Part shown: piece by piece, positions 1-46,683 of the stretch
Layout: each line of letters begins with the position of its first letter
Position numbering within the stretch: position 1 is the first letter of the stretch
Assembly: GCA_964639725.1 (NCBI GenBank)
Contig: CAZXFB010000007.1
Coordinates: 58,177-122,176, forward strand
Reading direction: 5' to 3'
DNA: 64,000 nucleotides
Source: an uncultured Rikenellaceae bacterium
GTDB taxonomy: Bacteria; Bacteroidota; Bacteroidia; Bacteroidales; VadinHA17
Position numbers and translations under genes: made by a program
The notes under the pieces: model-generated
Seen by the model: the letters and a program-made list of their open reading frames with translations, nothing else
Database searches by the model: none
What the model was told of the DNA's origin: nothing

Positions 1-1119
1 GATTATGGATGGAATGAGATTATTTCAATGTTTTCGGATGATAACGGAAATACATGGCAAACATCAGATAATGGTATAAAAATTCAGGTTGACAGCTCCC
101 AGGTGACTCGTTACGGGGGTGTAGAACCTTCTGTTATTGAATTGAATGATAATAAAGTATGGATGTTGATCAGGACAAATAAAGGACACTTGTATGAATC
201 GTTTTCCGCAAATTCAGGAAAGACATGGACCTCCCCTTCTGCTACAAAATATATTTCATCCGATTCACCGGCAACACTTTTGAGACTTAAAGATAACCGG
301 CTAATAATTTTATGGTCCGGGAACCAGCGCTGGGATGACCAGCGAAGTTATGCAAATGGTGGCAGGGAGGTTTTACATGCAGCTATATCGGGCAATGATG
401 GTAAATCATGGAGAGGGTTCAGAGAAATCTTAGTAAGTCCTGCCGGTCATTTTATTATTAAAAGGGACATCGGAACAGCTTATCCGTCAGCAGTTGAAAC
501 GGATGATGGAAAAATACTTTTTGTCTCTGGCCAGGCCGAAGAGAGGGCAATTGTCATGTTTGATCCCGACTGGCTGGAGGCGAAAAGCGCTAAGGATAAC
601 TTCCTTAAAGGATTGTCTCAATGGACATTATTCGGAGCTGATAGCAATACCTGCCTGAGATCGTTACCTTCGGAGAGAGCTAGGGAGGCGTTACTTATCC
701 GGAAATCATTGAATAGCAGGAACCATGATACTGAAGCAGTATGGAATTTCCCATTGACAACCAAAGGAAAAATTGTGATTGAAATAGTAAAAAATCCTGG
801 ATACAAAGGCATCAATCTTGCTCTTACAGATCATTTTTCAGTTTCATACGATACGCTTGCTTCAGAAAATAGTATTGTAAATATTTCATTAAAAAATGAG
901 ATGCAATTAAATACACCAACGGAATCTAAAATCATAATCCTTTGGGATAGTAATAAGAAAGAGGCATCTTGTTACAATAATAACACACTCCTAAAAATTG
1001 TGCCTTTTCAACGCAGTTCACTGACAGGAATAAATTATCTGCGAGCAGGTATTCCGGGTTCAGATGCTGATCTTGCCGGTTATTATATTCAATCGGTCAA
1101 ACTGGTAATGGGAGAATGA
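1..1119 (+). CDS. Asp-box (BNR) sialidase-fold protein, 5'-truncated by the window edge, with an extra C-terminal domain
   Basis: Frame 1 is open from base 1 (DYGWNEIIS precedes the first Met at 28). Asp-boxes SDDNGNTW, SANSGKTW and SGNDGKSW are present. The MLIRTNKG and TAYPSAV blocks match other sialidase-fold copies. About 170 aa follow the propeller. Confidence 0.7.
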   Translation, partial: DYGWNEIISMFSDDNGNTWQTSDNGIKIQVDSSQVTRYGGVEPSVIELNDNKVWMLIRTNKGHLYESFSANSGKTWTSPSATKYISSDSPATLLRLKDNRLIILWSGNQRWDDQRSYANGGREVLHAAISGNDGKSWRGFREILVSPAGHFIIKRDIGTAYPSAVETDDGKILFVSGQAEERAIVMFDPDWLEAKSAKDNFLKGLSQWTLFGADSNTCLRSLPSERAREALLIRKSLNSRNHDTEAVWNFPLTTKGKIVIEIVKNPGYKGINLALTDHFSVSYDTLASENSIVNISLKNEMQLNTPTESKIIILWDSNKKEASCYNNNTLLKIVPFQRSSLTGINYLRAGIPGSDADLAGYYIQSVKLVMGE

Positions 1120-1155
1120 CTTTAATTATAAAAAGCTTTTTTCCGTTGTATACAA

Positions 1156-2496
1156 TTACCGATCCTTAAGTAATAACCGCATAGTGATCCATTCTGTTGA
1201 TTTATATGCGTTTGTATTGCGTGGATAAGTAAGGATGATGTCCTTTGTCTCCCTGTCTTCAATTAGTGCCATGTGTGAAATATCCAACCGTCCCTTAGTA
1301 AGGTCTTCCTGTTTTTGAGTATCAACTACTAAAAGAGATGACCGGATCAGTTTAAGTGTCTCAGTATTCACCTCTGCCATAACAAGTGGAAACCGTGGCA
1401 AATTGTTCCGGCAATTTACAAATGAGAGGTTTCCAATCCAGAAACATCTTCCACCTGAATGTTTAAATAATGCAGACATTGAGGATGGTGAATAGAATAT
1501 ACTTCCGTCATCGAAAGTCCATTGCTCTGGTTTTGACCATGACTCTCCTCCATCATTTGAAACAGATAACCATTTATAACTTGGCAGCCTGTTTTCCGGA
1601 TCAAGTTTACCACCATTGCTTCCTCTCATTATCATCATTATCCTGCCGTCGTTCAACTCGAGTAATGTTGGTTCGATCATTCCACGAGTCGATCTTACCG
1701 GATCACCGGCTATTCTCTGCGACGCTTTCCATGATAATCTCTTATCATTGTTCCATGTACCAATGAGTACCAACACATCCGTATAGGTAAAGCCTCCTCC
1801 CGGATTGGCCAACCCGCTATCAGAATTTAGAATAGTTGTCTGTGCCGGGACAAGAATTTTCTCCTGTTTTGTGACAATTGGGATTGATCCTACATCACCC
1901 TGGTAAATTGAATTCTTACCAATAACAATACCTTCAAAGGGGTGTTTCTGAGTATAGTTCCCGTTACTTATAATAGGTTCATCAAAAAGCCATGTTGCAG
2001 CTGCATCATCAGAAACAATATATCGCAGATAGTAGGTCTCCTGGGCAACAGGTGGTTCATTTATAGAGGGATCCAGACCAGGAGTATCAAGAGAGTTGAT
2101 AATAACAACTATCCTTCCTGTAAATCTATCAAGCACTGATGTAACCTGATCGCGCCGATAGCCGTATGGAAGATTTGAGAAAAAATCAGGTTTATATATA
2201 TATTTGGTCCAAGTGCGACCATTATTATCTGAAAAATTATTACCGGAAAGAAGACCGAAACCATCAGTTTTTGAATAGATTGCATTATGAATTGAAGGCT
2301 GACCCGGAGAAACAATTCTGCTTTTAATCAGAAGAGCTGTTGAGCTGTTCTCCTTGTTATCCTGCTGTTCCTTTGGTGGTGAGCATGCCATTAGGATCAG
2401 TATACATATTGCAAAAAAAATCCGGGACCAAACATCAGGGATCCAATTTATGGATAGTGAACCAGGATTGTGCACATAAGAAAATCTTTTATTCAT
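1156..2496 (-). CDS. Lipoprotein, divergent Asp-box sialidase-fold protein
   Basis: Lipobox-like leader ILILMAC. Asp-boxes SDNNGRTW, SDDAAATW and SNDGGESW. Blocks EPTLLELNDGRIMMIMRG and PRFPL match the sialidase-fold pattern. Confidence 0.65.
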   Translation of the reverse strand: MNKRFSYVHNPGSLSINWIPDVWSRIFFAICILILMACSPPKEQQDNKENSSTALLIKSRIVSPGQPSIHNAIYSKTDGFGLLSGNNFSDNNGRTWTKYIYKPDFFSNLPYGYRRDQVTSVLDRFTGRIVVIINSLDTPGLDPSINEPPVAQETYYLRYIVSDDAAATWLFDEPIISNGNYTQKHPFEGIVIGKNSIYQGDVGSIPIVTKQEKILVPAQTTILNSDSGLANPGGGFTYTDVLVLIGTWNNDKRLSWKASQRIAGDPVRSTRGMIEPTLLELNDGRIMMIMRGSNGGKLDPENRLPSYKWLSVSNDGGESWSKPEQWTFDDGSIFYSPSSMSALFKHSGGRCFWIGNLSFVNCRNNLPRFPLVMAEVNTETLKLIRSSLLVVDTQKQEDLTKGRLDISHMALIEDRETKDIILTYPRNTNAYKSTEWITMRLLLKDR

Positions 2497-2550: not shown

Positions 2551-3798
2551 TCATAAATAATCTTTTTCACTAAGTGATATCTTGAGGTTACCCTGCCCTG
2601 TAGTAATCCATAGGTTACCCGGTTTATTCTCGAAGATGTATGGATAAGCGATAACATTATTCTTTTTGATGACCGCCGAAACAGCAGTGCATCTTGCTAC
2701 AATATGAGGCGTGCTCCAGTTTTTACCATCATCTGCAGAAAACATGATTGCAAGTTCCTCCCTGTGGTTACTGACAGGTACCTCCGACCAGTTGCTATCT
2801 CCACCAGTCAGTGTATATGATGTTTTTCCTTCAGGATAATAACGGTTCCAGATTAGAACAAGTCTACCGCTCTTTAATCTAAACAGATTACCAGGTGCGG
2901 AGCTTGCATCAATTCCTGTTGCTTTGAAATTTTTCCATGTAAGGCCCTCATTGTCGGAAAAAGCTTCCCAGAAGTAGCCCCAGTTTGTCCGCATCAACAT
3001 CCATATCTGGCCATCCCTGAGCTGTTCGATTGTGGCTTCTGTTACGCCCCCATGATGACCAACACCCCCAAGATCAATTATGTTACTGCGAATCCAGCTT
3101 TTTCCATCATCTTTTGAAGTATAAGTTAATACTGAATGACGACCAGGATTATGCTGCATCATCATTGAAGTAAACACAATACTGCCATCGTTTGTTTCAA
3201 TGATATCGCGGATTGATCCGGTCCATTCATCATGAAGTTTCTGAAGGTCCTGCCATGTTTTTCCTCCATCGAGACTTCTGACTGCGTAAGTAGGAAGGAT
3301 TGCTCCCGGGGAATCATGAATAGTCGTCTGCCAATTCCAATTTGACAATTCAGATGTATTATAGAATGCAAGAATAATTATTCCCTGTTTTGTTTGAATC
3401 AAAGCTCTTTCACTGATTGTGTATTTACCTGTTTCAGGAAAGACATTATACGAAGTCCATGAATAGCCTTCATCGTTACTAATAAGACATTTAGTTCCCT
3501 CGGCAGTAAGAATTGATCCATCAGTTAACCTGATAAATGGTCCTGTTTTGAGGCCAATAATTTCGAAAACATTCTCAGGTATCCATAAACCAGTTTTTGA
3601 AATTTTCCAACCCTCAGGAACATACGGATCATACTTACTGACTATCTCTTCCGGCTTCCTGCAACTAAAAAGAAATAAGAGTGACAAAAAGATCCATAAA
3701 ATCCTCACAGGGAAGAATTTAAAACTGATATATTCCTGGTTATGAACAGATTTCAAGTCAACCAGAAGCCATATTTGATGAGTTACAGGTAAAACCAT
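2551..3798 (-). CDS. Lipoprotein, Asp-box sialidase-fold protein
   Basis: Five Asp-boxes: SNDEGYSW, SLDGGKTW, SKDDGKSW, SDNEGLTW and SADDGKNW. Lipobox LFLFSC. The ATG at 3798 overlaps the upstream gene by 16 nt. A GTG at 3708 would give MRILWIFLSLLFLFSC and is a plausible alternative start. Confidence 0.7.
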   Translation of the reverse strand: MVLPVTHQIWLLVDLKSVHNQEYISFKFFPVRILWIFLSLLFLFSCRKPEEIVSKYDPYVPEGWKISKTGLWIPENVFEIIGLKTGPFIRLTDGSILTAEGTKCLISNDEGYSWTSYNVFPETGKYTISERALIQTKQGIIILAFYNTSELSNWNWQTTIHDSPGAILPTYAVRSLDGGKTWQDLQKLHDEWTGSIRDIIETNDGSIVFTSMMMQHNPGRHSVLTYTSKDDGKSWIRSNIIDLGGVGHHGGVTEATIEQLRDGQIWMLMRTNWGYFWEAFSDNEGLTWKNFKATGIDASSAPGNLFRLKSGRLVLIWNRYYPEGKTSYTLTGGDSNWSEVPVSNHREELAIMFSADDGKNWSTPHIVARCTAVSAVIKKNNVIAYPYIFENKPGNLWITTGQGNLKISLSEKDYL

Positions 3799-4856
3799 TC
3801 AGAAGGCAGACTTTTGAGTTTTAGCGAGAGACCGCCTTTATAGTTAAAATATGTAATAAGTGCCCTGTTTCCTATCCAGGTAACAGCAGGATAAGCCCAT
3901 GAATCGTCTGCTATCTCTTCGATGTTCCTGAAATTCACCCATGTTTCACCTTCATCCTTTGAAATTGCTGAGGTTAATGGATTACGACTTTTTGCACCCG
4001 GATTATTGTTCCAGATAGCAAGAATATCGCCTGAATCAGGAATCCTGCTTATTGAAACAGGGGCAGCCGTCCCGAGTAGTGTGGTTGGTACAGGTTCGCT
4101 CCATGTTTCTCCACCATCAGAAGAAACACTTTTATACTGACAACCTAGACCAGTACGCATTAGCATCATTACTTTTCTGTCTTTCAGTTCAATACAGGCA
4201 TTCTCAAAACAGGTTCCGGCTGTGGGTTTTATAAATTGACTATCTCTCCAGGTCTCGCCTTCATCATCAGATATTACACAATAACAGAAACCACCTTGCC
4301 AGGCTTCAAGAAGTATCCTGCCATTACTGAGTCGCAATGATCTTCCGTTTGTAAGACCTGTATATTTCCCATCGGGACTCATCTGCTTTTGATTGATCCA
4401 TGTTTTACCTTCATCAGATGAAGTGCGCATCATAATGCGGCAATCAGTAGCTTCAGTGTTCTTTTGCAGATAAAACAGAGCCAGATTCCCGTTCTTCAAT
4501 CTTAGAAAATTAACTTCCATAACGTTACATCCACCATCATTTTCAATCAGTGTGTATTTATCTCCCCATGAACGGCCACTATCAATGGAAATTTTCCCTG
4601 AAATCCTTGCAGGACCATGATCAGCGCCATTCCCGGCATAAAATTCAGTCCACCCAAGTAATAAGGAGCCATCTTTTAAAGGAATTATTGCAGCTTCACT
4701 GTTCCGTGTATTCTGAGGGCCCACAGGTGCCACAAAATATTCATAAATATCACTTTCAGAACCTTTGACAGAACCTTTATCTCTTTCTTGTCGATTCTTA
4801 CAGCCAGAATTTAACAGGATGGAGACTATAAAACAGATGGAGAATATCTTGTTCAT
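3783..4856 (-). CDS. Lipoprotein, sialidase-like glycosidase (GH33-like, TRNSE variant of FRIP)
   Basis: Lipobox LLNSGC. TRNSEAAIIPL sits at the FRIP position. Asp-boxes SIDSGRSW, SSDEGKTW, SDDEGETW, SSDGGETW and SKDEGETW. Also MLMRTG, SRNPL, SRIPDSGD and WAYPAV. Confidence 0.75.
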   Translation of the reverse strand: MNKIFSICFIVSILLNSGCKNRQERDKGSVKGSESDIYEYFVAPVGPQNTRNSEAAIIPLKDGSLLLGWTEFYAGNGADHGPARISGKISIDSGRSWGDKYTLIENDGGCNVMEVNFLRLKNGNLALFYLQKNTEATDCRIMMRTSSDEGKTWINQKQMSPDGKYTGLTNGRSLRLSNGRILLEAWQGGFCYCVISDDEGETWRDSQFIKPTAGTCFENACIELKDRKVMMLMRTGLGCQYKSVSSDGGETWSEPVPTTLLGTAAPVSISRIPDSGDILAIWNNNPGAKSRNPLTSAISKDEGETWVNFRNIEEIADDSWAYPAVTWIGNRALITYFNYKGGLSLKLKSLPSEWFYL

Positions 4857-4939: not shown

Positions 4940-5866
4940 TTAGACTAACTTTCCCAACGCAAAAATTCTGTTTTTTGAAGTCATGGTTACCATTTTTGAA
5001 TAATGATAAACAGTAGCCACCTCTTTATCTCCATCCATTATTGGAGTAGGTGCTTCAATAACGAAGTCGGCAAAATGTGGTTGATTAAATGCAATAAATG
5101 CAAGGCTCAGGCAATCAATCTGAATATCGTAGATTTTCGAAAGGTCAGGGAAAGCAACAGGACCAGTGTCAACCTGATAGATCTTTTTAGGATTACTGAT
5201 ATTCATTGTTTTGCAAGGACATTCAATAATGGCTTTCATTCCTGTATCAGCATTTTGAAATTCAGTCTGTGTCACAATCGGGATCCCGGCAGCAGTCGCA
5301 TCACGTATCTTTTCCCAGGTATCGAGTTCAGTAACCATTTTTGCATAAGGAGTGCGAATTACCGGGTTACCTCCCCACATTTCTTCCATCTTTTTTATTG
5401 AACGATAACGATCATCGCGTTTGGACGAATGACGACGGAAGACAAGTACTTTTCCATCTCCGAAAATCGGCAGAAAATCATAATTATCAATATAGAACAA
5501 ATCCTTCTCCCCAAATGTATTTTCGCTTTTGCAGGATGCCCCCTGATAATAAATAGTATTTGTTCCGGATTTTGTATCAATAATGATCGTCCTGCTTTCG
5601 ATCCACATTCTGACAGAATTAAACTCTGCAGTATTACAGAAGAACGACTGACCATAATCAATGCAGGCGAGTGGATCAGAAGTAGCTGTTCCTGAGACGG
5701 TTTCATTTGCACAGCCAGTTGAAATCTGTGAAACTATTACACCGGATGCTGCAAAAAGACCTCTCTTTAAAAAGTTTCTTCTAGAAGCACCCGCTTTTTG
5801 GCCGGAACTGACTGATTCGATTCCGGAGATCAAGCTCTGATCATCTTTCAAAGTTTTCTTCTTCAT
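4940..5866 (-). CDS. Tat-exported protein of unknown function
   Basis: Near-consensus twin-arginine leader SRRNFLKRGLFAASGVIV followed by STGCA. I recognise no family motif. Several cysteines are present (CIDYGQSFFC, IIECPCK). Confidence 0.55.
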   Translation of the reverse strand: MKKKTLKDDQSLISGIESVSSGQKAGASRRNFLKRGLFAASGVIVSQISTGCANETVSGTATSDPLACIDYGQSFFCNTAEFNSVRMWIESRTIIIDTKSGTNTIYYQGASCKSENTFGEKDLFYIDNYDFLPIFGDGKVLVFRRHSSKRDDRYRSIKKMEEMWGGNPVIRTPYAKMVTELDTWEKIRDATAAGIPIVTQTEFQNADTGMKAIIECPCKTMNISNPKKIYQVDTGPVAFPDLSKIYDIQIDCLSLAFIAFNQPHFADFVIEAPTPIMDGDKEVATVYHYSKMVTMTSKNRIFALGKLV

Positions 5867-8072: not shown

Positions 8073-9251
8073 CTATTTATATACTAATCCTATAGTAAGC
8101 CTGTTAATATCAATTGAAGAGTTGTTTTTATCAGCACGGTTCCAATAACCAAGGAAAATATTTTGTCCTGAAAAATGTATGGCAGTATAACAGAATGACC
8201 CATTTGGGTCATCCTCAATAACTTTTGTATTGGTCCAGGTATTTCCATCATCCTTTGAGATGGAAATGCATAGGGGTGTCCGTTTCTGGTTAGTGCCATT
8301 TCTATTCCAGGCTAAAATTAAATCACCTGTTGAAGGAATTCTGGATATGGATGCTGGTGAGAGCGGAGATACAATATTGCTCCTCTCAGCAGGAGTCCAT
8401 GTCAAACCTTTGTCTTTAGATATTGATTTATACTGTGCTCCTTTGTTTGTGCGGATAAACATGAAAATATCTTCGTTTTTTAGCTCGACTACTCCAGGTT
8501 CCTGGGTAAGTACGTTTTCATAGTTAGGGACTTCACTACCAGATGTCCAGGTTAATCCCGCATCATCTGAATAATATGTACACAGGGTGAAATATTCAGC
8601 CCATCCATTATACCCTGGTTTATGAACAGCAACGGGAATCAGAATCCGACCATTTTTAAGCTGTATTACCCGGTCATTATTGACGACAAAATAACCAGAT
8701 TTATCTGTGATACATGGAAACGGGTCACTCCATGTAGAAGCTTCATCCTTTGAGATCCTCATCATGGGAATACAATCAGTGGTTGAATTTTTCCTCAGGT
8801 AAAATAAGGCTATCTCACCATTCTTTAACCTCAGTAAGGAGACTGACATTACATTCATTGTACCTTCCTGCTTAACTATTGTAATATCTTCAGGGCTCCA
8901 TGTTCTGCCTCCATCATCCGAATATCTTCCTGCGAGGTATGCACTAGCATTATCGCCACCTGAAGTACCCGTATAATGGCTATATATAAATAGTATTCTG
9001 CCATTATTCAAAGTAATAAAATCACCTTCGCTGTTTCTTGGATTATCAACACCTGGTAAGATTCTGAATAAGGTTCTTTCAGTTACTAAAGTATCTCCGG
9101 CATCATCTTTTCTATATTCGAAATGCGAAACTATTTTCTGATCTGATCTATCTTTTCCCCGGGAGTATCCCAGGAGGCCAGAGAGAAGGAAAATAATAAT
9201 AAATGAATAGAGGAATAACCATTTGCGGGAATATGTTTCAGTTTCTGCCAT
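8073..9251 (-). CDS. Sialidase-like glycosidase, family A (PRNSEGD variant)
   Basis: NPRNSEGDFITLNNGRILFIYSHYTG, SDDGGRTW, GTMNVMSVSLLRLKNGEIALFYL, DCIP, CITDK, SRIPSTGDL, QKRTPL, SKDDGNTW and FCYTAIHF. N-terminal membrane or signal anchor. Confidence 0.8.
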   Translation of the reverse strand: MAETETYSRKWLFLYSFIIIFLLSGLLGYSRGKDRSDQKIVSHFEYRKDDAGDTLVTERTLFRILPGVDNPRNSEGDFITLNNGRILFIYSHYTGTSGGDNASAYLAGRYSDDGGRTWSPEDITIVKQEGTMNVMSVSLLRLKNGEIALFYLRKNSTTDCIPMMRISKDEASTWSDPFPCITDKSGYFVVNNDRVIQLKNGRILIPVAVHKPGYNGWAEYFTLCTYYSDDAGLTWTSGSEVPNYENVLTQEPGVVELKNEDIFMFIRTNKGAQYKSISKDKGLTWTPAERSNIVSPLSPASISRIPSTGDLILAWNRNGTNQKRTPLCISISKDDGNTWTNTKVIEDDPNGSFCYTAIHFSGQNIFLGYWNRADKNNSSIDINRLTIGLVYK

Positions 9252-20282: not shown

Positions 20283-20541
20283 AGTTTATGATATTAATTA
20301 AAATTAGTTTTATAAGATTCAAGATGCATGATTGTAATTATACTAATATTCAAATATAATTTTTTTAATAAAGAGATACAATAACATAATTATAAATTAC
20401 AACCTTTACGTAAATAAAAAAAATATTGAACTTATGAAAGTTTGATTTGAATGAAGTTTGACAGAACTTCAATTTGAAAAAAATAGAATATTGACTATAT
20501 TTCCATTGAGTTTGAATAGCAGAAGTAAAATAATTAAAAGA

Positions 20542-21894: not shown

Positions 21895-21952
21895 ACTATT
21901 AACCTTCATTACAAATGAAATGATAATCAAAAATAGATTTACAGGAGGAACC

Positions 21953-29029: not shown

Positions 29030-29126
29030 TTATTGATAAATATTAAAAACTATTTTCATACAGTCTTATGTGCTCCCTAAACTATAAATAATCAATGATA
29101 AAAGAAAGCATATATTGATAGATTTG

Positions 29127-31550: not shown

Positions 31551-31668
31551 TGTCTCTATCAGGTATTATACTAAAGAATAATCATCATTCAAAAAATCCA
31601 TCCCGAAACCAGTTTTCTGTTAAATCCTTATTAAATGAGTTGTTGTTACTCAGTTTAATAGTCTGGTA

Positions 31669-32601: not shown

Positions 32602-32792
32602 CCCGGTGATAGATTTAAGTATTTTTAAAATTTATTCCATCGTGATCCTTAATTACTTATGTGCAACACATTGAAAAAATTGAAGAGAGTTTTTAAATAA
32701 ACATTTTTAATATAACACAGGATAAATATCCGTTAATTACAAACCCCGATTACCGGTTAATCTCACTTCATGTATTGTGTTTTAAAATTTTG

Positions 32793-33923: not shown

Positions 33924-33965
33924 TATATTTTGTTAAGTTGATAAATTGCATTTAATCAGTGTATT

Positions 33966-33984
33966 ATTCTGATAATATCAGAAT
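33966..33984. promoter_or_regulatory. 8-3-8 palindrome upstream of the GH33 sialidase gene (candidate operator)
   Basis: ATTCTGAT-aat-ATCAGAAT has perfect 8-bp arms. It lies about 43-61 nt upstream of the start codon at 33923, in the 87-nt gap after the Gfo/Idh/MocA gene. Confidence 0.3.
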
Positions 33985-34010
33985 CGAATCTTAAACAGGA
34001 GATTTGATAA

Positions 34011-34934: not shown

Positions 34935-34938
34935 TATC

Positions 34939-35730: not shown

Positions 35731-35773
35731 AATTGTATACTTATTAAGTTAACCCTCTTTAATGTGACATGTT

Positions 35774-38325: not shown

Positions 38326-38341
38326 AATAAGATCCAAAACA

Positions 38342-39769
38342 TTATTTAAACCTGATAGAGTATAAATCTGCATCCTTCATATAAATACGCAACCGTACAG
38401 GCTTATTTGCCAGTTTTTTTAAACTTTTATTATCTTTCCAGGAGGCAATACCGGCTATCTCATTGCCAACAAGTGATTTTGATTCACTAAAAGAAAAACC
38501 CGTAAATGGCTGACCATTAATATCCTGAATCTCAATCTTAATCTCTCCGGCTACAGAAGTAGAATAGTTTAATTCAAGTTCATCACCTGAAAAAGTAAAT
38601 TGTTTTGTAATCAATTCACCTCCAGTATAAGATGCATTCAAAGAAGTAAAACCGTCGAGCCGCATAGAATAGCGATGAAGATGGGCTGTTGGCTGTGCAT
38701 AATCCTGGTTAACATAGAGAGACATCTCTTCCGGTCCTGTCTGAACAATATTAAGACAAGGATAATTTGTACGTGCTGACCAGTTATTCAAACCTATTCC
38801 TGGGCGAATGAACGACTCCATAAATGTCCGCTCATATCTATTCCCTCCCCGAGTAGTCATAATATACGCATCTGACAATCCTTTGAATTGTGTAGGATCA
38901 ACTTTTAATTTTTTAAGTTGCTCCTCTGTCATTATCTGCCTGTCAGGAATAAATCTAGCACCAATGGAAAGATAAATCTGAGGAGCCCTGAAATAAGGGC
39001 TTGTCTGTTGGGTATAAAGATGCTCAGTTGGAGTATCACCATATGTCATCACAACTGGCTCAGACCAATTGAGAAAGTCTTTGGATGTACTCCTGCTGAT
39101 TCCACGAAATCGTTTATCAGAAAAAATGCGGAAATAACAAACATAGAGTTTTTCACTTTCTGACCAGAAAGAAACGTTTTGAGAATCAAAAGCACCTTTT
39201 CTTATAACTCCTTCATCTTTAATCTTTCTCCAGTGAATACCATCGGGCGAAACAAATGGAATCAAACCCGTTTTTGAATTTCCCCCAAAAGCTTTATATT
39301 TCTGATCAGATGTTATGTCAGGATTGGAATCCAAAAAAGGAGAGAAATTATGGGTTACCGGTTCCGTTAAGAGCACTACATTATTCTGCATTGACCCCTT
39401 AACTTCATTCAGATCCAATATTGGTTTCACCCATTTGATACCATCATCCGACTCGGCATAACATGTTAGCTGTGGACCTGAAATCTCATCCATCCCACGA
39501 TAATAGAGTCGAAATATATCTTTATCCTTTATTATGGTACTGTAAGTACAAAATTTACCCTCCCACGGTTTATCAAAATAAACAACAGCTCCTTCGTCAT
39601 GTGGATGGTGCATAACAATCTTTATGCCTTCAAGTTTATCAATAATATAATAGTCGGTAAAGATCTCCCTGTTATAACCTAACCGGATGATCTCATTTCT
39701 GCCAGTTTGGGCAGACTCTTTAAAACCGGATAATGCAATAAGAATTATTAAAAAGAAGAACTTACTCAT
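38342..39769 (-). CDS. Secreted beta-propeller-like putative glycoside hydrolase, family not identified (family B)
   Basis: Signal peptide present. Paralog of 9382-10995, sharing YRGMD/YRMYY, YAESDDGIKW, SPDGIHW, FDSQNVSFW, HLYTQQTSPYFRAP, RLDGFTS and NKPVRLRIYMKDADLYSIRFK. Confidence 0.55.
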   Translation of the reverse strand: MSKFFFLIILIALSGFKESAQTGRNEIIRLGYNREIFTDYYIIDKLEGIKIVMHHPHDEGAVVYFDKPWEGKFCTYSTIIKDKDIFRLYYRGMDEISGPQLTCYAESDDGIKWVKPILDLNEVKGSMQNNVVLLTEPVTHNFSPFLDSNPDITSDQKYKAFGGNSKTGLIPFVSPDGIHWRKIKDEGVIRKGAFDSQNVSFWSESEKLYVCYFRIFSDKRFRGISRSTSKDFLNWSEPVVMTYGDTPTEHLYTQQTSPYFRAPQIYLSIGARFIPDRQIMTEEQLKKLKVDPTQFKGLSDAYIMTTRGGNRYERTFMESFIRPGIGLNNWSARTNYPCLNIVQTGPEEMSLYVNQDYAQPTAHLHRYSMRLDGFTSLNASYTGGELITKQFTFSGDELELNYSTSVAGEIKIEIQDINGQPFTGFSFSESKSLVGNEIAGIASWKDNKSLKKLANKPVRLRIYMKDADLYSIRFK

Positions 39770-39870: not shown

Positions 39871-40713
39871 TCAATGATCTCCCTCATAATATTCACCTCC
39901 GCAAACTGAAGAATTAACATCATAAATTGAGAGTTCCTTAAACATCAGACGTGCAATCTGGGAATGCCCATTCCCATTTGGATGAAGTGGATCATTTAAC
40001 CAATCCTTATAAACATTAATTGTTGCACTATTTTGAAATGTATCCTGCCAATGGTAATAATTATCAATAAGAATTAGTTTCTCTTTTTCAGCAACCTTCC
40101 TGATTACAGATACATAGTCAGGTAATTTTGTTCTTTCAGGAGATTTTCTGAATATTATCAGGTTTGGAGTATGAAGTATAGGTACCGCTTTCATATCCCT
40201 TATAGCATTAACCAGCAGAATAAGGTTCTTTTCAAATAGTTCAATCTGAATCCTTTCTTTTGAACAATCATTGGTCCCTATCATCAGAGACACAACGTTT
40301 GGCTTGAACTGTTTAATCCTCCACTCCAAATCATCAAGAATAGTTTGAGTTGTATTACCACTAATACCTGTATTGATAATGATATCCCGCATCCTGGACA
40401 ATTCCCACCTGATACGTTCTGCAAAGATCTCAGGATAAGAACGATATCCTTGTGTATGTTTTGCCCCATGGGTTATACTGTCACCTGTAAATAACCAAAT
40501 GATCGGATCTTTTAGTTTTAAGTGACCCGAGATCCATTCATGATCCGGAAGTTCCTTTCCGGATGCAACATTTCTATCATATACTCTTATTTTACTATTG
40601 CCTGCTGCAATCCGTTGAGATTTTGCTGAAAGAGCAAAAGTGAAGGTTGAAAAGTATAAAGATTTCTCAAAGAATCTTCTTCTGGAAATTCTGATCTCTT
40701 TCATACCACTCAT
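39871..40713 (-). CDS. SGNH/GDSL-family esterase with an RR leader (candidate sugar O-acetylesterase)
   Basis: Leader ISRRRFFEKSLYFSTFTFALSA. Block I is LFTGDSITHG, block III is GTND and block V is DPLHPNGNGH. Confidence 0.75.
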   Translation of the reverse strand: MSGMKEIRISRRRFFEKSLYFSTFTFALSAKSQRIAAGNSKIRVYDRNVASGKELPDHEWISGHLKLKDPIIWLFTGDSITHGAKHTQGYRSYPEIFAERIRWELSRMRDIIINTGISGNTTQTILDDLEWRIKQFKPNVVSLMIGTNDCSKERIQIELFEKNLILLVNAIRDMKAVPILHTPNLIIFRKSPERTKLPDYVSVIRKVAEKEKLILIDNYYHWQDTFQNSATINVYKDWLNDPLHPNGNGHSQIARLMFKELSIYDVNSSVCGGEYYEGDH

Positions 40714-40757: not shown

Positions 40758-41849
40758 TCAACGAACAAACCAACGGATTCTGTATTTTCCCTCTTTGCGT
40801 TGAAACTTTAGTGAATAAGGATCAACAATCCATAAGCTGACATTACCATCCGATTTTGGCATCAACCAACCAAAATCCCATTCCTTACTTTTGTATTTTA
40901 AAGGAATGGCAGGTTTAACCCTGACCACTGGCTGTGATGCTGCCATAAATTCTTTTCTACCGGTATAATAATAACATGATCCGCAATGAATAAATACCTC
41001 ATGGTTTATTGTTTCTGTCTTGGCAGGAGACAAATCACTACACAATCCACTAATTCCTACTTTAACCTCTTTCCCATGCTCAAATGCTTCAGCCAGAGCC
41101 TCAATTGAACCTGATAAAACCTTATTGTCGGCACTATTTGAATAAACCTCTTCCCAGCTATCGCATACCCAGAATTTATATATATCAAAGTCATATACAA
41201 AATTGCTGCTTGGTGCGTTTGTACCAGCATCCCAGCTATCGAACTGGTGATACTTAGGCATGTCACTATGATCATCAATTGGGGATTGTCCAAAGTCTTC
41301 TGAGGCAGGTATTCCATCCAGATATGGACGGGCAATAGCCTGGTCAGCATTCTGATTGTAGAGAAAGAATGACATTGATGGTCTCGGACCAAAACCTTTT
41401 GGAAGATCAATAGGTTGACGAAGATTTATTATACCGGCAACCCAGCGGTTATCCAATAAGTAAGTGATCCTGAAATCAGCTACTTCCCTGATTAGTTCAG
41501 GATCTGAAGATTTAGTGTCAATATGCTCATTATGATGAAATTCGGTATAGATCCTCAGATCTGCACCACGTCGGATAGCTGCAACCAGCATTTCCTCACT
41601 GCCTGATATTACCTTCCTGTCGCGGTCAAGTACCAGCATACATTTCCAGTTACTGTTTTCATTCATTTTGTTGTTCCCATTTAAGAGTTCCCCAGGTGAC
41701 ATATTTCCTCTGAATGTTGATGCCATATTTCCATAATTATTTACGGAATCTGACTCTCTATTAAGAAATGCAATTCTTTGGTTTCCCGTTCTGTTCCGGC
41801 AACCTAAAAGTAAAAGAATTAGCAAACAAAAAGCCAGTGTTCTATTCAT
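40758..41849 (-). CDS. Lipoprotein of unknown function
   Basis: Lipobox LLLLGC and an uninterrupted 363-aa ORF inside the co-directional array. I recognise no motif. Confidence 0.5.
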   Translation of the reverse strand: MNRTLAFCLLILLLLGCRNRTGNQRIAFLNRESDSVNNYGNMASTFRGNMSPGELLNGNNKMNENSNWKCMLVLDRDRKVISGSEEMLVAAIRRGADLRIYTEFHHNEHIDTKSSDPELIREVADFRITYLLDNRWVAGIINLRQPIDLPKGFGPRPSMSFFLYNQNADQAIARPYLDGIPASEDFGQSPIDDHSDMPKYHQFDSWDAGTNAPSSNFVYDFDIYKFWVCDSWEEVYSNSADNKVLSGSIEALAEAFEHGKEVKVGISGLCSDLSPAKTETINHEVFIHCGSCYYYTGRKEFMAASQPVVRVKPAIPLKYKSKEWDFGWLMPKSDGNVSLWIVDPYSLKFQRKEGKYRIRWFVR

Positions 41850-41920: not shown

Positions 41921-43012
41921 CTATTTATATATCCAGTCTAGGTCCATTCTTACCAGAGTCGATCCCCAGTGAAACCAGTCTGAGTAGCATAATAATACAT
42001 AATTATCAATAAAATGGAGAGCAGGATAGCAATAGACACCATCTGGTTTGTCGGCAAGGACCTTATTTTTCATCCATGTTTTCCCATCATCTTTTGAAAC
42101 AGCAATATTTAATGGGGTTCGTTTCTGGTTGAGTCCATTATCATTCCATACCATAAGCAGATCGCCCGTTGAAGGGATTCTTGTTATAATCGCAGGGGAA
42201 CAGGGAGATTTAATGTTGCTGGGTTCAACAGCACTCCATGTTTCGCCTTTATCCTTAGAATAAGAGAAATATTGAACTCCGGCAGTTGTACGTATATACA
42301 TAAGTATTTCACCATTATTTAACTCTACCATACCAGGCTCCTGTGTAACAATGGCAGCTGGATTTTCTACTTCCTTACTTGCTTTCCAGTTTCGACCATT
42401 ATCATCAGAATAATAACTCCACAAACGTCCCACTGCAGCAGCTTTTGTTTCACCCGGGCTCTGATGCATTGCAACAGCTAATAAAAGCCGGCCACTTTTA
42501 AGTTGAATTACGCGATTATTATTTAGCACAAAATAAGCTGCTTTATCTGTTATACAGGGTAAAGGATCACTCCATGTTTTAGCTTCATCATTCGATAAAC
42601 GTATTAATGGAATACAATCTGTTTCAGAATTCTTTTTAAGATAGAACAAGGCTATTTCACCATTCTGTAACCTCAGTAGTGAGACTGACATGACATTCAT
42701 AGTTCCTTCCTGCCCGACAATTTTCACATCCTCTTCTGACCATGTTTTACCTTTATCGTCTGAGTATCTTCCTGCCAGAAAGGCACTTGCATTATCATCC
42801 ATTGAAGTACCGGTATAATGGCTATAAATAAAAAGAATTCTGCCATCCTTCAAAGTGATAAAGTCACCTTCACTATTTCGCGGATTATCAGCAACAGGGA
42901 GAAGCTTAAGTACATCTTCCATTCCCTGAGCTACTTCATTACTCTTACTGGCAGACCTGTTCCCGCAACCATAACCTATTAGTATTAACAAACAGAGAGC
43001 TGATATTTTCAT
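41921..43012 (-). CDS. Sialidase-like glycosidase, family A (lipoprotein), tandem copy 4
   Basis: DNPRNSEGDFITLKDGRILFIYSHYTG, SDDKGKTW, GTMNVMSVSLLRLQNGEIALFYL, CITDK, TRIPSTGDL, QKRTPL, SKDDGKTW and YCYPALHF. I chose Met at 43012 (MKISALCLLILIGYGC). The longest ORF reaches 43084. Confidence 0.8.
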   Translation of the reverse strand: MKISALCLLILIGYGCGNRSASKSNEVAQGMEDVLKLLPVADNPRNSEGDFITLKDGRILFIYSHYTGTSMDDNASAFLAGRYSDDKGKTWSEEDVKIVGQEGTMNVMSVSLLRLQNGEIALFYLKKNSETDCIPLIRLSNDEAKTWSDPLPCITDKAAYFVLNNNRVIQLKSGRLLLAVAMHQSPGETKAAAVGRLWSYYSDDNGRNWKASKEVENPAAIVTQEPGMVELNNGEILMYIRTTAGVQYFSYSKDKGETWSAVEPSNIKSPCSPAIITRIPSTGDLLMVWNDNGLNQKRTPLNIAVSKDDGKTWMKNKVLADKPDGVYCYPALHFIDNYVLLCYSDWFHWGSTLVRMDLDWIYK

Positions 43013-43099
43013 AATATCAGAGAAATGAATACAGGCATCAATATGTGCTGTTCCTGGTTCGCAAATGGCAGAGATCTTTTTCATTTTCTTCTATTTATT

Positions 43100-44200
43100 T
43101 TAATTATAAATCCAATCAAGACTTATTCTAGCTACGTCCAAAACTGCCCAATTTTTCCCTTTAGATGTGCTGCCGGCAGTATAGCCCAATAAAACATTAT
43201 CCCCGGTAAAATGAATTGCAGTATAGCAATAACGCCCTTCAGGATTCTCTTCAATACTTTTAATATTATTCCATGTGATTCCTTCATCTCTTGAAATGGC
43301 AATTTTTAATGGAGAACGTATCTGGTTTAAACCATTGTCATCCCAAACCAGAAGTAAATCACCGGTAGAGGGTATTCTTGCTATTGATGCAGGAGCAACC
43401 GGAGAATTTATTTTACTTCTTTCTGAAGGACTCCAGGATTCTCCTTTATCTTTTGAATAGGATATATACTGTACTCCCGCATTAGTGCGTATTAACATAA
43501 ATATATCACCATTTTTCAGCTCAACCAGAGCCGGTTCCTGAGTCAGTACATTATCCGGATTAGGGACTTCAGCACTGGACCTCCAGCTTCGACCATTATC
43601 ATCAGAATAGTAACCCCACAGACGATCTGTATAGAGTTTTGATTCTTCTGAAACAGCAAAAAGAATCCGTCCGTTACTTAATTGGATAACATGATTATTG
43701 TGAAGGCAAAAGTAACCTTTCTTATCAGTGATGCATGGTCTGGGATCGCCCCAGCTAACAGCTTCATCATCTGATATTCTAATAATGGGAATACAGTCTG
43801 TTTCAGAATTTTTCCTTAAATAAAACAACGCTATTTCGCCATTTTGTAACCTGAGAAGTGATACAGACATTACATTCATTGTACCTTCCTGGTCAACAAT
43901 TTTCTTATCATCGGTGGTCCAGCTTTTACCCTGGTCACTTGAGTATCTCCCAGCCAGGTATGCATTCGCATTGTCATTATCTGAAGAACCAGTATATCTG
44001 GTAAAAACAAATAATAACCTTCCATCCTTAAGAGTAATAAAGTCACCCTCACTATTTCGTGGATTATCAAGACCTGACTCGAGTCTGAGAACAATCTCCT
44101 TTCCACTTGCTGAACTTTTATTTTCTCCCTGTCTTGTCTTACACCCTGAATTGATAAGTATTAATATTAAAATAACAAATATCTTAATCACTCCTGCCAT
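43100..44200 (-). CDS. Sialidase-like glycosidase, family A (lipoprotein), tandem copy 3
   Basis: DNPRNSEGDFITLKDGRLLFVFTRYTG, SSDQGKSW, GTMNVMSVSLLRLQNGEIALFYL, CITDK, ARIPSTGDL, SRDEGITW and YCYTAIHF. I chose Met at 44200 (MAGVIKIFVILILILINSGC). The longest ORF reaches 44251. Confidence 0.8.
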   Translation of the reverse strand: MAGVIKIFVILILILINSGCKTRQGENKSSASGKEIVLRLESGLDNPRNSEGDFITLKDGRLLFVFTRYTGSSDNDNANAYLAGRYSSDQGKSWTTDDKKIVDQEGTMNVMSVSLLRLQNGEIALFYLRKNSETDCIPIIRISDDEAVSWGDPRPCITDKKGYFCLHNNHVIQLSNGRILFAVSEESKLYTDRLWGYYSDDNGRSWRSSAEVPNPDNVLTQEPALVELKNGDIFMLIRTNAGVQYISYSKDKGESWSPSERSKINSPVAPASIARIPSTGDLLLVWDDNGLNQIRSPLKIAISRDEGITWNNIKSIEENPEGRYCYTAIHFTGDNVLLGYTAGSTSKGKNWAVLDVARISLDWIYN

Positions 44201-44267
44201 TTTAAATATTACAAATGTGTTTGATTTGCGGTTTATTAATAAGTTTGGCATTTTACAAATAAATCAA

Positions 44268-45356
44268 TTATTTATATATCCAGTCTATGCTTATTTTTTT
44301 TACGGTAACTCCTGTTGCTGTCCAGTCGAAATAGCCTAAAAGGAGATCATTACCGGTAAAATGAATTGCGCTGTAGCAATATGACCCTTGGGGATCATTT
44401 TCAAGAATCTTATTATTAATCCAGGTTTTTCCATCATCTTTAGAAATCGCCAGATTAAGAGGAGTTCTGTTCTGATCCACACCATTATCATTCCAAACAA
44501 CAAGAATATCTCCAGTTGACGGAATTCTTGCCATTGATGCAGGAGAGCAGGGTGATTTAAGTGAACTGGGTTCAACCTGGCTCCATGTTTCTCCTTTATC
44601 TTTTGAATATGAGAAATACTGAACCCCTGCAGTAGTCCGGAGAAACATCAGGATATCACCATTTTTTAATTCAATTAAGCCAGGTTCCTGAGTGATAATC
44701 TGGCCTGGATTTGGGACTTCAGAACTAGACTTCCATGTCCTTCCATTATCATCTGAATAATAATTCCAGATCCGGCCTATTCTATAAAAGGTTTTATCAC
44801 CGGGGATTCCATGCATTGCAACAGCAAGCATAAGTCTGCCGTTCTTTAATTGGATCACCCTGTTATTATTAAGTACAAAATAACCCTCTTTATCAGTTAT
44901 ACATCTTGAAGGTTCACTCCAGGTTTTTGCTTCATCGGTTGAAATCCTTATCATCGGGATACAATCAGTAGTAGAATTCTTCTTCAGGTAGAAGAATGCT
45001 ATCTCACCATTTTGTAACCTGAGGAGAGAGACTGACATAACATTCATTGTTCCTTCCTTGTCAAGAATTTTCGTATCAGCCGTTGTCCAGGTCTTTCCAT
45101 TATCGGATGAATATCTTCCTGCAAGAAAGGCACTGGCATGATCATCATTTGAAGTTCCTGTGTAATGGGAGTATACATATAGAATTCTACCATCCTTCAG
45201 GGTAATAAAGTCACCCTCGCTATTACGGGGATTGTCAGGGCCTGTTGTGAGTTTAAGCACATCCTCAACTCCAGAGCTCTCGCTTTTGATTCCGGCAGGT
45301 TTATTACGGCAACTTCCGCTGATTACAATAAGGAAACAGAGTGCCAATATTTTCAT
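44268..45356 (-). CDS. Sialidase-like glycosidase, family A (lipoprotein), tandem copy 2
   Basis: DNPRNSEGDFITLKDGRILYVYSHYTG, SSDNGKTW, GTMNVMSVSLLRLQNGEIAFFYL, CITDK, ARIPSTGDI, SKDDGKTW and YCYSAIHF. I chose Met at 45356 (MKILALCFLIVISGSC). The longest ORF reaches 45446. Confidence 0.8.
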   Translation of the reverse strand: MKILALCFLIVISGSCRNKPAGIKSESSGVEDVLKLTTGPDNPRNSEGDFITLKDGRILYVYSHYTGTSNDDHASAFLAGRYSSDNGKTWTTADTKILDKEGTMNVMSVSLLRLQNGEIAFFYLKKNSTTDCIPMIRISTDEAKTWSEPSRCITDKEGYFVLNNNRVIQLKNGRLMLAVAMHGIPGDKTFYRIGRIWNYYSDDNGRTWKSSSEVPNPGQIITQEPGLIELKNGDILMFLRTTAGVQYFSYSKDKGETWSQVEPSSLKSPCSPASMARIPSTGDILVVWNDNGVDQNRTPLNLAISKDDGKTWINNKILENDPQGSYCYSAIHFTGNDLLLGYFDWTATGVTVKKISIDWIYK

Positions 45357-45525
45357 AAAAACAGATGGATGAATAAGAGTGGCAATCTTGAACATGTTAT
45401 TAAGGTTTTTTAAATTCATTTTATTCGATTTAAAGTTAATAATCAAAGAATCCTAGTTCGTACCCGGAATATTGCTTAATGACAGTAAGTGATTACCCTG
45501 CTCACTGCTCCCAACTTACTATTCA

Positions 45526-46683
45526 CTATTTATAAATCCAATCCAAACTTAGTTTTGTTATCTGGGTAACCTGCAGACCGGTACGCTTAGGGCGGTTCCC
45601 CGCACAATGTCCTAACAAAACATCTTTCTCTGTAAAATGTATGGCAATATAACAATACCATCCATCGGGGTCAGTTTCGATGTTTTTGATCTTTTCCCAG
45701 GTTGTGCCTTCGTCCTTAGATATTGCCACTGTGAGTGGTGTACGTTTGCCTTTAATTGCCGGATCATCTCCTCCATTATTGTTCCAAACCAGCAAAAGAT
45801 CGCCTGTAGAAGGGATTCTTTCTATTGATGCCGGAGATACCGGGGATTTAATATTGCTTCGTTCAACAGGGCTCCAGGTCTCCCCCTTATCTTTTGAATA
45901 TGACTTACACTGTACTCCTGCATCTGATCTTATTAGCATCAATATATCTCCGTTCTTTAGTTCAACCAGACCTGGTTCCTGAGTCAGTACTTTTTCAGGA
46001 TTTGAGACTTCAATCCCGGATTTCCAGCTGCGCCCATTATCATCTGAATAATAGCTCCATAAACTTCCCTTATTTAATTGTGATCCTTCCTGAGTATTAT
46101 AAAGATTTACTGCCATCAGAATACGTCCATTCTGTAACTGGATTACACGATTGTTATTAAGTACAAAATAACCTGCTTTATCTGTTATACATGGTATAGG
46201 ATCGCTCCAGGATTTCGCATCATCATTTGAAAACCGAACCATCGGTATACAATCTGAATCTGAGTTTTTCTTCAAATAGAACAAAGCTATCTCATCATTT
46301 TGCATTCTTAAAAGTGATACTGACATAACATTCATTGTACCTTCCCTTTCAACAATTTTCACATCTTCGTTGGTCCATGTTTTTCCACCATCAGATGAAA
46401 ATCTTCCGGCAAGAAATGCGGGATCATTATCTCCACCGGAAGCACCAGTATAGTGGGTATAAATGAAGAGAATACGATTATCCTTTAAAGCTATAAAGTC
46501 TCCTTCACTGTTACGTGGATTATCAAGACCTGGCTCAAGCCTAAGAGCAATCTCCCTGCCCTTATCCGGACTACCACATCCTGTATTCACCAGGATCAAC
46601 AAAACAGCTACTAATAAGATTATTAAAGGTATTGAAAGAGAGTTGCCGGAATCTGAATCGTGAAGTTTTATTTTTTTGTCCAT
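45526..46683 (-). CDS. Sialidase-like glycosidase, family A (lipoprotein), tandem copy 1
   Basis: DNPRNSEGDFIALKDNRILFIYTHYTG, SSDGGKTW, GTMNVMSVSLLRMQNDEIALFYL, CITDK, ERIPSTGDL, GKRTPL, SKDEGTTW and YCYIAIHF. Lipobox LVNTGC. Confidence 0.8.
   Translation of the reverse strand: MDKKIKLHDSDSGNSLSIPLIILLVAVLLILVNTGCGSPDKGREIALRLEPGLDNPRNSEGDFIALKDNRILFIYTHYTGASGGDNDPAFLAGRFSSDGGKTWTNEDVKIVEREGTMNVMSVSLLRMQNDEIALFYLKKNSDSDCIPMVRFSNDDAKSWSDPIPCITDKAGYFVLNNNRVIQLQNGRILMAVNLYNTQEGSQLNKGSLWSYYSDDNGRSWKSGIEVSNPEKVLTQEPGLVELKNGDILMLIRSDAGVQCKSYSKDKGETWSPVERSNIKSPVSPASIERIPSTGDLLLVWNNNGGDDPAIKGKRTPLTVAISKDEGTTWEKIKNIETDPDGWYCYIAIHFTEKDVLLGHCAGNRPKRTGLQVTQITKLSLDWIYK

Follow-up and report, generated by a model that had tools for sequence, protein, structure and literature searches.

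Introduction

The exo-alpha-sialidases of glycoside hydrolase (GH) family 33, among them B. thetaiotaomicron BTSA (4BBW), the M. viridifaciens enzyme (1EUS), and P. gingivalis PG_0352 (8T1Y), are built on a six-bladed propeller with Asp-boxes. In these enzymes an arginine triad clamps the C1 carboxylate of the ulosonic acid, and a tyrosine and a glutamate form the nucleophile pair; sialidases are usually recognised by this Arg-triad and Tyr signature together with the FRIP motif. Here we describe a 64-kb stretch of DNA from an uncultured Rikenellaceae bacterium (contig CAZXFB010000007.1; hereafter the window, meaning the whole stretch at its full length) that holds 15 genes sharing the same propeller fold, of which 14 differ from GH33 in lacking the (F/Y)RIP motif and those of three families, designated B, D, and 1156, lack the nucleophile tyrosine. 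We consider it reasonably probable that the window encodes a multi-family enzyme suite for glycans containing N-acylated nonulosonic acids.

The nearest described departure from the classical signature is GH181. Its representative, Amuc_1547 of Akkermansia muciniphila (8AXI/8HLS), is an inverting sialidase in which Gln350 replaces the tyrosine, and the family signature comprises His-Gln in place of Tyr, Gln in place of the FRIP-equivalent Arg, a B domain, and a domain resembling a carbohydrate-binding module (CBM) (PMC10067855). A sialidase-fold enzyme without the tyrosine can thus still hydrolyse sialosides, which provides a precedent for families D and 1156; the replacement differs, however, being Asn-Phe in D and 1156 and His-Gln in GH181, whereas two further families of the window, 2551 and p1, keep the tyrosine within an AYP motif.

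At the level of the locus, the closest comparison is with the nan loci of Bacteroidota, which combine the NanOU SusC/SusD pair with NanH, a NanL/NanA lyase, NanM, NanT, and a sialate esterase (PMC10017367). Related loci in other genomes that carry family A, one of the families described below, resemble these in having SusC/SusD, a NanA-like lyase, NanM, a major facilitator superfamily (MFS) transporter, a GntR regulator, and a GDSL esterase in an operon-like array. They differ in that their sialidase gene is family A and not a canonical GH33, and in having a short-chain dehydrogenase/reductase (SDR), SMP-30, AstE/AspA, a pyridoxal phosphate (PLP) enzyme, RidA, an RraA-like protein, and M81 instead of NanE/RokA-type genes. 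Of the components of a nan polysaccharide-utilisation locus (PUL), the window itself has SusC/SusD, an MFS transporter, and a GDSL esterase, but no DHDPS-family lyase or NanM in its 64 kb. The genes are divergent variants within a known superfamily, the locus is of a familiar type, and we do not regard the whole as a novel class of system.

Sialidase-fold genes of the window

The window has a GC content of ~38% and 47 substantial open reading frames (ORFs), nearly all on the minus strand, and is a single large Bacteroidota PUL whose enzymes mostly carry lipoprotein or twin-arginine (TAT) export signals, as judged by a signal motif scan (Table 1). Exactly 15 of the 47 ORFs are sialidase-superfamily propellers, in agreement with an initial annotation of this DNA made by eye, and every locus which that annotation had named is a real ORF. 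Over their 5,941 aa the 15 proteins contain 46 strict Asp-boxes (S-x-D-x-G-x-x-W), whereas the remaining 32 ORFs (13,947 aa) contain none. Thirteen of the 15 pass the Pfam gathering threshold of BNR_2 (PF13088; 31.4 bits), with scores of 38–126 bits; as for the family D genes, 15844-17103 scores 19.2 bits, below the cut-off, and 37000-38373 has no Pfam match. The 15 ORFs are linked by the profile of the 1156 family, which finds every one of them at E ≤ 2e-8, and none of the family profiles matches a window ORF outside the 15. In the source databases these proteins are labelled "sialidase family protein" or "hypothetical."

Comparison by BLAST sorts the genes into about eight families of the sialidase superfamily (CAZy clan GH-E-like): family A (six genes, 60–69% mutual identity), family A′ (36–40% identical to A), family B (two genes, 66% identity), family D (two genes, 44% identity), and the singletons 1156, 2551, 32793, and p1, the last incomplete. 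Such a density, 15 genes of about eight families in 64 kb, is unusual; the maximum in any related 21-kb locus is seven sialidase-fold genes, from up to five families.

The glutamate is kept in every family. The tyrosine is kept in ten genes and replaced in five, and the second and third arginines of the carboxylate clamp (Arg2 and Arg3) are both present in 13 of the 15, the exceptions being the two genes of family B. The Glu/Arg2/Arg3/Tyr set is kept in ten genes (the six of family A, A′, 2551, p1, and the canonical GH33 gene 32793), among which the first arginine of the triad is verified in 32793 only. The residues cited in the initial annotation are all present (NPRNSEGD/NTRNSEAA, the QEP/FEN Glu, h-h-R-T, (K/I/N/S)R(T/S/N)PL, and CY-x-A/WAYPAV), and the two families that it described as Tyr-less do lack the residue; 1156 is also Tyr-less, so that the genes without the nucleophile number five and not four.

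Gene 32793 is a bona fide GH33, and the only one among the 15. The motif [FYW]R[IV]P is found solely here, as YRIP, which bears out the earlier claim of a single FRIP copy. Residue-by-residue alignment identifies R60 (in YRIP), D85, E238, R254, R314, and Y342; BNR_2 and BNR_3 both exceed their Pfam cut-offs, and phmmer against the PDB matches the Bacteroides sialidases 9db6/4bbw at E 2e-48. The protein has no N-terminal CBM.

Table 1. Features of the 64-kb window in order of position. Genes are named in the text by their first coordinate or by family.
Position	Strand	Assignment	Remarks
1-1119	+	Family p1, sister of 2551	N-terminus cut at window edge
1156-2496	-	Family 1156, lipoprotein	E275, R291, R368 (PRYPL); S-N-F at Tyr position
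2551-3798	-	Family 2551, sialidase-fold lipoprotein	Keeps E254, R270, R346, Y385
3783-4856	-	Family A′	NTRNSEAA; Glu in FENACIEL, LMRT, SRNPL, WAYPAV; five Asp-boxes
4940-5866	-	w4940 protein, 308 aa	TAT signal; conserved Cys residues
6208-7464	-	Family B, lipoprotein signal	E265 kept; Arg2 replaced by W281, Tyr by A386 (invariant G-A-P)
8073-9251	-	Family A paralogue
9382-10995	-	Secreted/lipoprotein ORF
11076-12095		GNAT gene	Adjoins family B gene 12136-13245
12136-13245	-	Family B, no signal peptide	Between MFS and GNAT genes
13289-14578	-	MFS transporter	Pfam MFS_1; candidate importer of released acidic sugar
14674-15822	-	Family A paralogue
15844-17103	-	Family D, lipoprotein	E258, R273, R337 (NRAPL); N370-F371 at Tyr position
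16615-17076	+	Antisense ORF, ~150 aa	Inside 15844-17103
18355		3-Keto-disaccharide-hydrolase/DUF1080 protein
19263		GFO/IDH/MocA oxidoreductase
20458-21894	+	DegT/DnrJ/EryC1 aminotransferase
22970		Xylose-isomerase-like TIM protein	TAT signal
23909		GFO/IDH/MocA oxidoreductase	TAT signal
25228-28182	-	Secreted/lipoprotein ORF, 984 aa
28229-29029	-	SDR	Pfam
29127-31550	-	GH78 rhamnosidase	Pfam
32793-33923	-	Canonical GH33 exo-sialidase catalytic domain, 376 aa	phmmer, Pfam
34939-35730	-	HpcH/HpaI aldolase (class II)	Pfam
35774-36877	-	URO-D/MtaA-like protein	Weak methyltransferase-family matches
37000-38373	-	Family D paralogue	TAT-type signal (ERRSFIKK)
38342-39769	-	Secreted/lipoprotein ORF
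39871-40713	-	GDSL/SGNH esterase	Pfam, TAT motif; candidate sugar O-acetylesterase
40758-41849	-	Secreted/lipoprotein ORF
41921-43084	-	Family A	Tandem of four, directly downstream of SusD
43100-44251	-	Family A	Same tandem
44268-45446	-	Family A	Same tandem
45526-46683	-	Family A	Same tandem
46882-48360	-	SusD	Pfam; head of minus-strand gene array
47281-47739	+	Antisense ORF, ~150 aa	Inside SusD
48414-51641	-	SusC	Pfam; head of minus-strand gene array
51909-52778	+	AraC-type regulator	Pfam; divergent from SusC/SusD
52878-53732		3-Keto-disaccharide-hydrolase/DUF1080 protein
53799-56078	-	DUF4838 protein, 759 aa	Between DegT cluster and DUF1080 gene
56165-57547	-	Secreted/lipoprotein ORF
57674-59053	-	DegT/DnrJ/EryC1 aminotransferase
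59078-60448	-	DegT/DnrJ/EryC1 aminotransferase
60479-61843	-	DegT/DnrJ/EryC1 aminotransferase

Families that keep the glutamate, two arginines, and tyrosine

The four tandem family A genes all encode lipoproteins in which NPRNSEGD replaces FRIP. Across 32 family A homologues R44, D72, E224, R240, R297, and Y328 (numbering of 44268) are invariant. An AlphaFold2 model of 44268 (predicted local distance difference test score, pLDDT, 88.8; predicted template modelling score, pTM, 0.86) has GH33 enzymes as its best PDB matches in Foldseek (E 1e-17, TM-score 0.73–0.76), including P. gingivalis 8T1Y (E 1e-17) and the M. viridifaciens sialidase (TM 0.76). The top 50 matches are GH33 or GH33-containing fusion constructs, plus Dfer_1899 of Dyadobacter fermentans (5HX0), an uncharacterised structural-genomics BNR protein that ranks second (E 2e-17, TM 0.70); its source shares the ecological group of family A within the Bacteroidota, but at 19–20% identity it belongs to a different family. 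Identity to solved GH33 structures is 17–22%. Alignment by hhalign with the GH33 profile runs over the full length at 99.6% probability, and in the profile alignments E224, R240, R297, and Y328 fall in GH33 columns; the aspartates D71/D72, of which D72 is the invariant one and the candidate acid/base, align with the acid/base D85 of 32793 to within one column.

The initial annotation had also placed an arginine of family A at the FRIP position. This is not what hmmsearch and hhalign return, since both put the PRNSE Arg 2–3 residues upstream of the FRIP Arg, in a stretch of low alignment confidence. In the structural model strand 1 (E45-52) begins right after R44, the same placement that the FRIP Arg has in the GH33 motif. 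Elsewhere in the hhalign alignment with GH33, the Arg of D-x-R becomes His or Tyr in family A and another Asp becomes Asn. In classical sialidases these two residues contact O4, and their replacement, as far as can be judged from the alignment, fits the remodelled subsite that had been proposed earlier.

Family A′, said previously to keep the Glu, Arg, and Tyr, does so: by motif, it has the Glu, two Arg, and Tyr of GH33. Orthologues of 3783 at 61–78% identity adjoin family A in six loci, and more distant matches (32–35%) occur in two others. The genes 3783-4856 and 2551-3798 overlap by 16 nt (3783-3798), which fits translational coupling in one operon.

The pairing of an IRT/MRT arginine with an AYP tyrosine, reported earlier for 2551 and for 1-1119, was recovered as LMRT/LIRT with AYP in both. 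Family 2551 aligns with GH33 at 98.8% probability in hhalign, with Glu/Arg/Arg/Tyr in register, and 27 of the 79 family A loci described below have an orthologue of it. By phmmer its nearest solved sequence is the Akkermansia GH181 enzyme (8axi/8hls, E 1e-10). The similarity to 8axi is limited to 118 aa in blades 4–5, and E254, R270, and R346 align with E218, R234, and R305 of GH181. Family 2551 does not fit the GH181 signature: it keeps Tyr385 (AYP), and neither a B domain of the GH181 type nor a CBM was detected. Family p1 is related to the 2551 family at 99.8% probability (hhalign) and by motif comparison keeps the VEPS Glu, LIRT Arg, GGRE Arg, and TAYPSA Tyr. The part of p1 within the window (363 aa) comprises the last ~160 residues of the propeller and an unassigned ~200-aa C-terminal domain, with residues 2–163 matching positions 142–275 of the BNR_2 profile; the alignment of the family spans 565 match columns, so that full-length relatives are much longer than 363 aa.

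Families without the tyrosine

In the family D gene 15844 the sequence G-N-F-G stands where the tyrosine is expected, and an FHPR motif (R60) lies near the N-terminus. The family has a single, degenerate Asp-box (TDDLGK[ST]W). The fold is nevertheless that of a sialidase: for the AlphaFold2 model of 15844 (pLDDT 89.5), the top 50 Foldseek matches are all GH33 sialidases or GH33-containing fusion constructs (E 7e-13, TM ~0.6), at 11–16% identity to solved GH33 structures. Many of the 2,728 family D homologues have a precomputed PF13088 match. When D was compared with A and with GH33 by hhalign, default settings aligned the Asp-box alone and the -glob option aligned nothing.

Family 1156 has one strict Asp-box and 595 representative homologues, and E275, R291, and R368 are invariant in homologues down to 29% identity.

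Family B is related to family A at 98.7% probability (hhalign), with the glutamate alone kept and the Arg3 column variable between Lys and Arg. Its homologues are mostly ~369 aa long, have the same start as 12136, and for the most part lack a signal peptide, and 12136 and most family B proteins are therefore predicted to be cytoplasmic. The family has a FRIP-like motif of its own, Y-R-N-P, near the N-terminus, which the initial annotation had missed.

Related loci in other genomes

A search of species-representative genomes with the NPRNSEGD pattern recovers 583 or more relatives of family A, whose hosts are, among others, Dyadobacter, Larkinella, Spirosoma, Cyclobacterium, Parapedobacter, Chitinophagaceae, and Prolixibacteraceae. 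The closest relatives (75–79% identity) are from Prolixibacteraceae, Bacteroidales, Cyclobacteriaceae, and Daejeonella, and the family is common in Bacteroidota of soil, freshwater, and sludge. For genomic context, 79 family A loci were taken from GTDB genomes with 10 kb on each side, and their ORFs were called and clustered; 43 of the loci are complete (21 kb).

SusD and SusC precede family A in 38 and 36 of the 79 loci, respectively. The other recurrent neighbours are a PLP enzyme (PALP; 35 loci), an SDR (34), a DHDPS-family protein (34), an AstE/AspA-type deacylase (32), an orthologue of the GDSL esterase 39871 next to family A (28), NanM (28; PF24996, 119 bits vs. a cut-off of 45), RidA (28), M81/MlrC (27), an SMP-30 lactonase (27), a GntR-FCD regulator (22), an RraA-like aldolase (22), and an orthologue of the MFS transporter 13289 (19–20). 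For the one DHDPS-family representative compared with the PDB, the top 25 matches are all N-acetylneuraminate lyases (E down to 1e-34). A NanA-like lyase or NanM is present in 29 of the 43 complete loci, and a canonical GH33 in just 5 of the 79. The conserved gene order is GntR, SusC, SusD, (2551), (p1), one or more copies of A, GDSL, AstE, SDR, PALP, DHDPS, MFS, RraA, RidA, MlrC, SMP30, NanM.

The families of the window also travel together. Related PULs (e.g., L008, L030, L005, L049, and L068) repeatedly bring together A, A′, 2551, p1, D, B, 1156, and the w4940 protein; in the Terrimonas locus L008 the order is SusC SusD A A A′ D 2551 w4940 A B NanM, and the other four, of which L030 is from Daejeonella, are similar. 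Orthologues of w4940 (54–73% identity), itself without a match in Pfam or NCBIfam, lie between sialidase-fold genes in 12 related loci. A second type of context, seen in L007, L010, and L012, resembles the window in having DegT, GFO, A, GH78, and a relative of 25228. Family B was followed in 80 metagenome loci: a DHDPS-family gene lies near B in 11 of the 35 loci longer than 9 kb, and a sodium:solute symporter (SSS) is found in 8 of the 80.

A fixed operon of Cytophagales, Chitinophagales, and Sphingobacteriales (L034, L019, L018, L040, L060, L073, and ~25 more) combines the NanA-like lyase and NanM with the SDR, SMP-30 lactonase, AstE/AspA deacylase, PALP enzyme, RidA, RraA-like aldolase, and M81/MlrC (e.g., L034:11000-21000). 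Genes of NanE, NanK, or RokA type are absent from the recurrent neighbour families of the 79 loci. The operon looks like an undescribed oxidative route from an N-acylmannosamine to a 2-keto-3-deoxy acid; our literature search found no paper on such a route.

Substrate, mechanism, and alternative readings

The simplest reading of these loci is that family A is the resident sialidase-type gene of nan-like PULs in environmental Bacteroidota. The presence of a NanA-like lyase, NanM, GntR, MFS, and GDSL in the SusCD PULs near family A fits glycosidases for sialic-acid-type sugars, and the partner enzymes (a dehydrogenase, a lactonase, an N-acyl-amino-acid deacylase, a PLP dehydratase with RidA, and an aldolase) suggest an N-acylated amino sugar as the product of the lyase. 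The related loci therefore favour N-acylated nonulosonic acids, that is, N-acetyl- or N-glycolylneuraminic acid (Neu5Ac/Neu5Gc) and possibly legionaminic- or pseudaminic-type sugars, and not 2-keto-3-deoxynononic acid (Kdn) or 3-deoxy-manno-octulosonic acid (Kdo). The earlier proposal that most of the genes encode active glycosidases for keto-deoxy acid sugars thus gains from the fold, from the Glu, two Arg, and Tyr of the ten genes, and from the nan-like context, whereas Kdn and Kdo, which it had named among the possible substrates, are disfavoured by the related loci.

From these observations we infer a substrate class, a mechanism, and a division of labour among the genes. By residue conservation, the ten Glu/Arg/Arg/Tyr genes would most likely encode retaining exo-glycosidases that act at the cell surface or in the periplasm and release an alpha-keto acid sugar related to sialic acid, and the paralogues probably differ in specificity for linkage or sugar variant. 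The two D genes and 1156 may act as hydrolases on the same class of sugar with the help of an activated water, or catalyse a related non-hydrolytic chemistry; GH181, which is inverting and has Gln for Tyr, is the analogy that makes an inverting, water-mediated mechanism plausible for both families. Family B would probably handle a derivative taken up into the cell, at a step ahead of a DHDPS-type lyase.

Several results weigh against this reading. A Pfam search of the window found no NanA-like (DHDPS-family) lyase, NanM, or GntR, so that these genes are tied to sialic-acid catabolism through their orthologues elsewhere, and the HpcH/HpaI aldolase, GH78, four TAT-bearing DegT proteins, and GFO/IDH/MocA oxidoreductases of the window leave room for a different target sugar. 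In the profile alignment the first triad Arg of family A does not coincide column for column with that of FRIP. The register of the Glu and Arg2 of family D comes from sub-optimal hhalign alignments (7–14% probability) and motif spacing. Curated NCBIfam models have no match for A, A′, B, D, 2551, p1, or 1156, nor did our literature searches bring up a characterised protein from any of these families.

The points about the target sugar bear on a first alternative, in which the window acts on non-amino ulosonic acids (Kdo, 3-deoxy-lyxo-heptulosaric acid [Dha], or Kdn) of plant, algal, or lipopolysaccharide glycans, such as the Rha-alpha-1,5-Kdo of rhamnogalacturonan II (RG-II), and the class II HpcH/HpaI aldolase, in place of a NanA-type lyase, would cleave the 2-keto-3-deoxy acid set free. 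The canonical GH33 gene is indeed surrounded by the GH78, the SDR, a TAT-signal Amidohydro_2, and the HpcH/HpaI aldolase, and the window has no DHDPS-family lyase; L005, with the same sialidase-fold set, has an HpcH-like gene just upstream of SusC. There is also a precedent in B. thetaiotaomicron BT1013, which joins a GH78 domain to a Kdo hydrolase domain and acts on chain C of RG-II (PMC13501991). We nonetheless hold this alternative, though a serious one, to be unlikely: the orthologous PULs have a NanA-like lyase, NanM, N-acyl deacylases, a PLP dehydratase, and RidA, the window is rich in amino-sugar enzymes (four DegT proteins, a GNAT, and a CN-hydrolase), and 32793 is closest to genuine Neu5Ac sialidases.

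It is also possible, in our view with a still smaller probability, that many of the copies are non-enzymatic, being glycan-binding surface lipoproteins or decayed paralogues that retain the propeller as a scaffold. The loss of Arg2 and Tyr in B and of Tyr in D and 1156 speaks for this, and Amuc_0623, a BNR-domain protein of Akkermansia, showed no sialidase activity (PMC10067855). Against it stand candidate catalytic residues that are invariant in A, D, and B across homologues at 55–85% identity, the same invariance in 1156 at greater distances, and the hundreds to thousands of homologues of each family; a mostly cytoplasmic family B is likewise ill-suited to surface binding. That the genes are instead other Asp-box propeller glycosidases (GH93 arabinanase-like, GH74-like, or GH143-like) unrelated to keto-acid sugars is very improbable, for although Asp-boxes occur in several GH families (PMC2716378), and 2551 has a marginal match to the GH93 exo-arabinanase 3a71 (E 0.02), the GH33 profile alignments are full-length at 98.8–99.6% probability, the clamp arginines are conserved, the structural matches of A and D are those listed above, and no GH93, GH74, or GH143 entry is in the Foldseek top 50 of either model, which removes the family placement that the initial annotation had named as contrary to its own reading.

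The reading of the window as an enzyme suite for N-acylated nonulosonic acids can be extended, and the extension taken whole is doubtful. It would make D, 1156, and B new Tyr-less families of the sialidase clan, with invariant Glu/Arg sets, which together with A, 2551, p1, the TAT-exported DegT, the GFO/IDH/MocA proteins, and the deacylases constitute the first environmental pathway on record for the breakdown of bacterial nonulosonic-acid glycans (legionaminic-/pseudaminic-type or other N-acylated ones, as in exopolysaccharides, capsules, or flagellin), with D and 1156 as inverting or otherwise non-classical ulosonidases and B as a cytoplasmic converter feeding a DHDPS-type lyase. The Tyr-less families, co-inherited as they are with nan genes, are in any case good candidates for new glycoside hydrolase families.

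If these proteins are active, annotation by canonical motifs badly under-counts the environmental capacity for nonulosonic acid release. The locus would then also be a candidate panel for activities without an assigned gene, such as a bacterial Kdnase (in our literature search legionaminidase gave no paper and pseudaminidase no more than passing mentions), and the Tyr-less families could become CAZy families of their own, like GH181.

Other genes of the window

The four DegT/DnrJ/EryC1 paralogues all have twin-arginine signals (RRKFI, RREFV, RRNFI, and RRRFV) and are thus predicted to be periplasmic PLP enzymes within a catabolic PUL. This family is known from cytoplasmic nucleotide-sugar biosynthesis, and a periplasmic location in a catabolic PUL is unusual. 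The genes at 18355-25180, which include the GFO/IDH/MocA oxidoreductases and the xylose-isomerase-like protein, seem similar, together with 52878-53732, to the gene set of pathways for oxidative (3-keto) glycoside cleavage. The DUF4838 protein has no NCBIfam match and may be glycosidase-like.

The GH78, SDR, TAT-signal Amidohydro_2, and HpcH/HpaI aldolase genes are grouped on the minus strand at 28229-36877 and could form a candidate non-phosphorylative L-rhamnose module; the URO-D/MtaA-like protein beside them might be a sugar O-demethylase. Compared with the PDB as a candidate N-acylmannosamine dehydrogenase, the SDR of this group has generic SDRs of the FabG/gluconate-5-dehydrogenase type as its best matches.

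Eight ORFs without annotation in the window have no NCBIfam match. The five secreted or lipoprotein ORFs of Table 1 (363–984 aa) have no significant match in Pfam or NCBIfam, the 984-aa protein having a weak CBM11 match only. Relatives of this protein recur beside family A and GH78 in L010, and relatives of 9382 recur in five family B loci. The two ~150-aa ORFs that lie antisense within the family D gene and SusD are most likely spurious.

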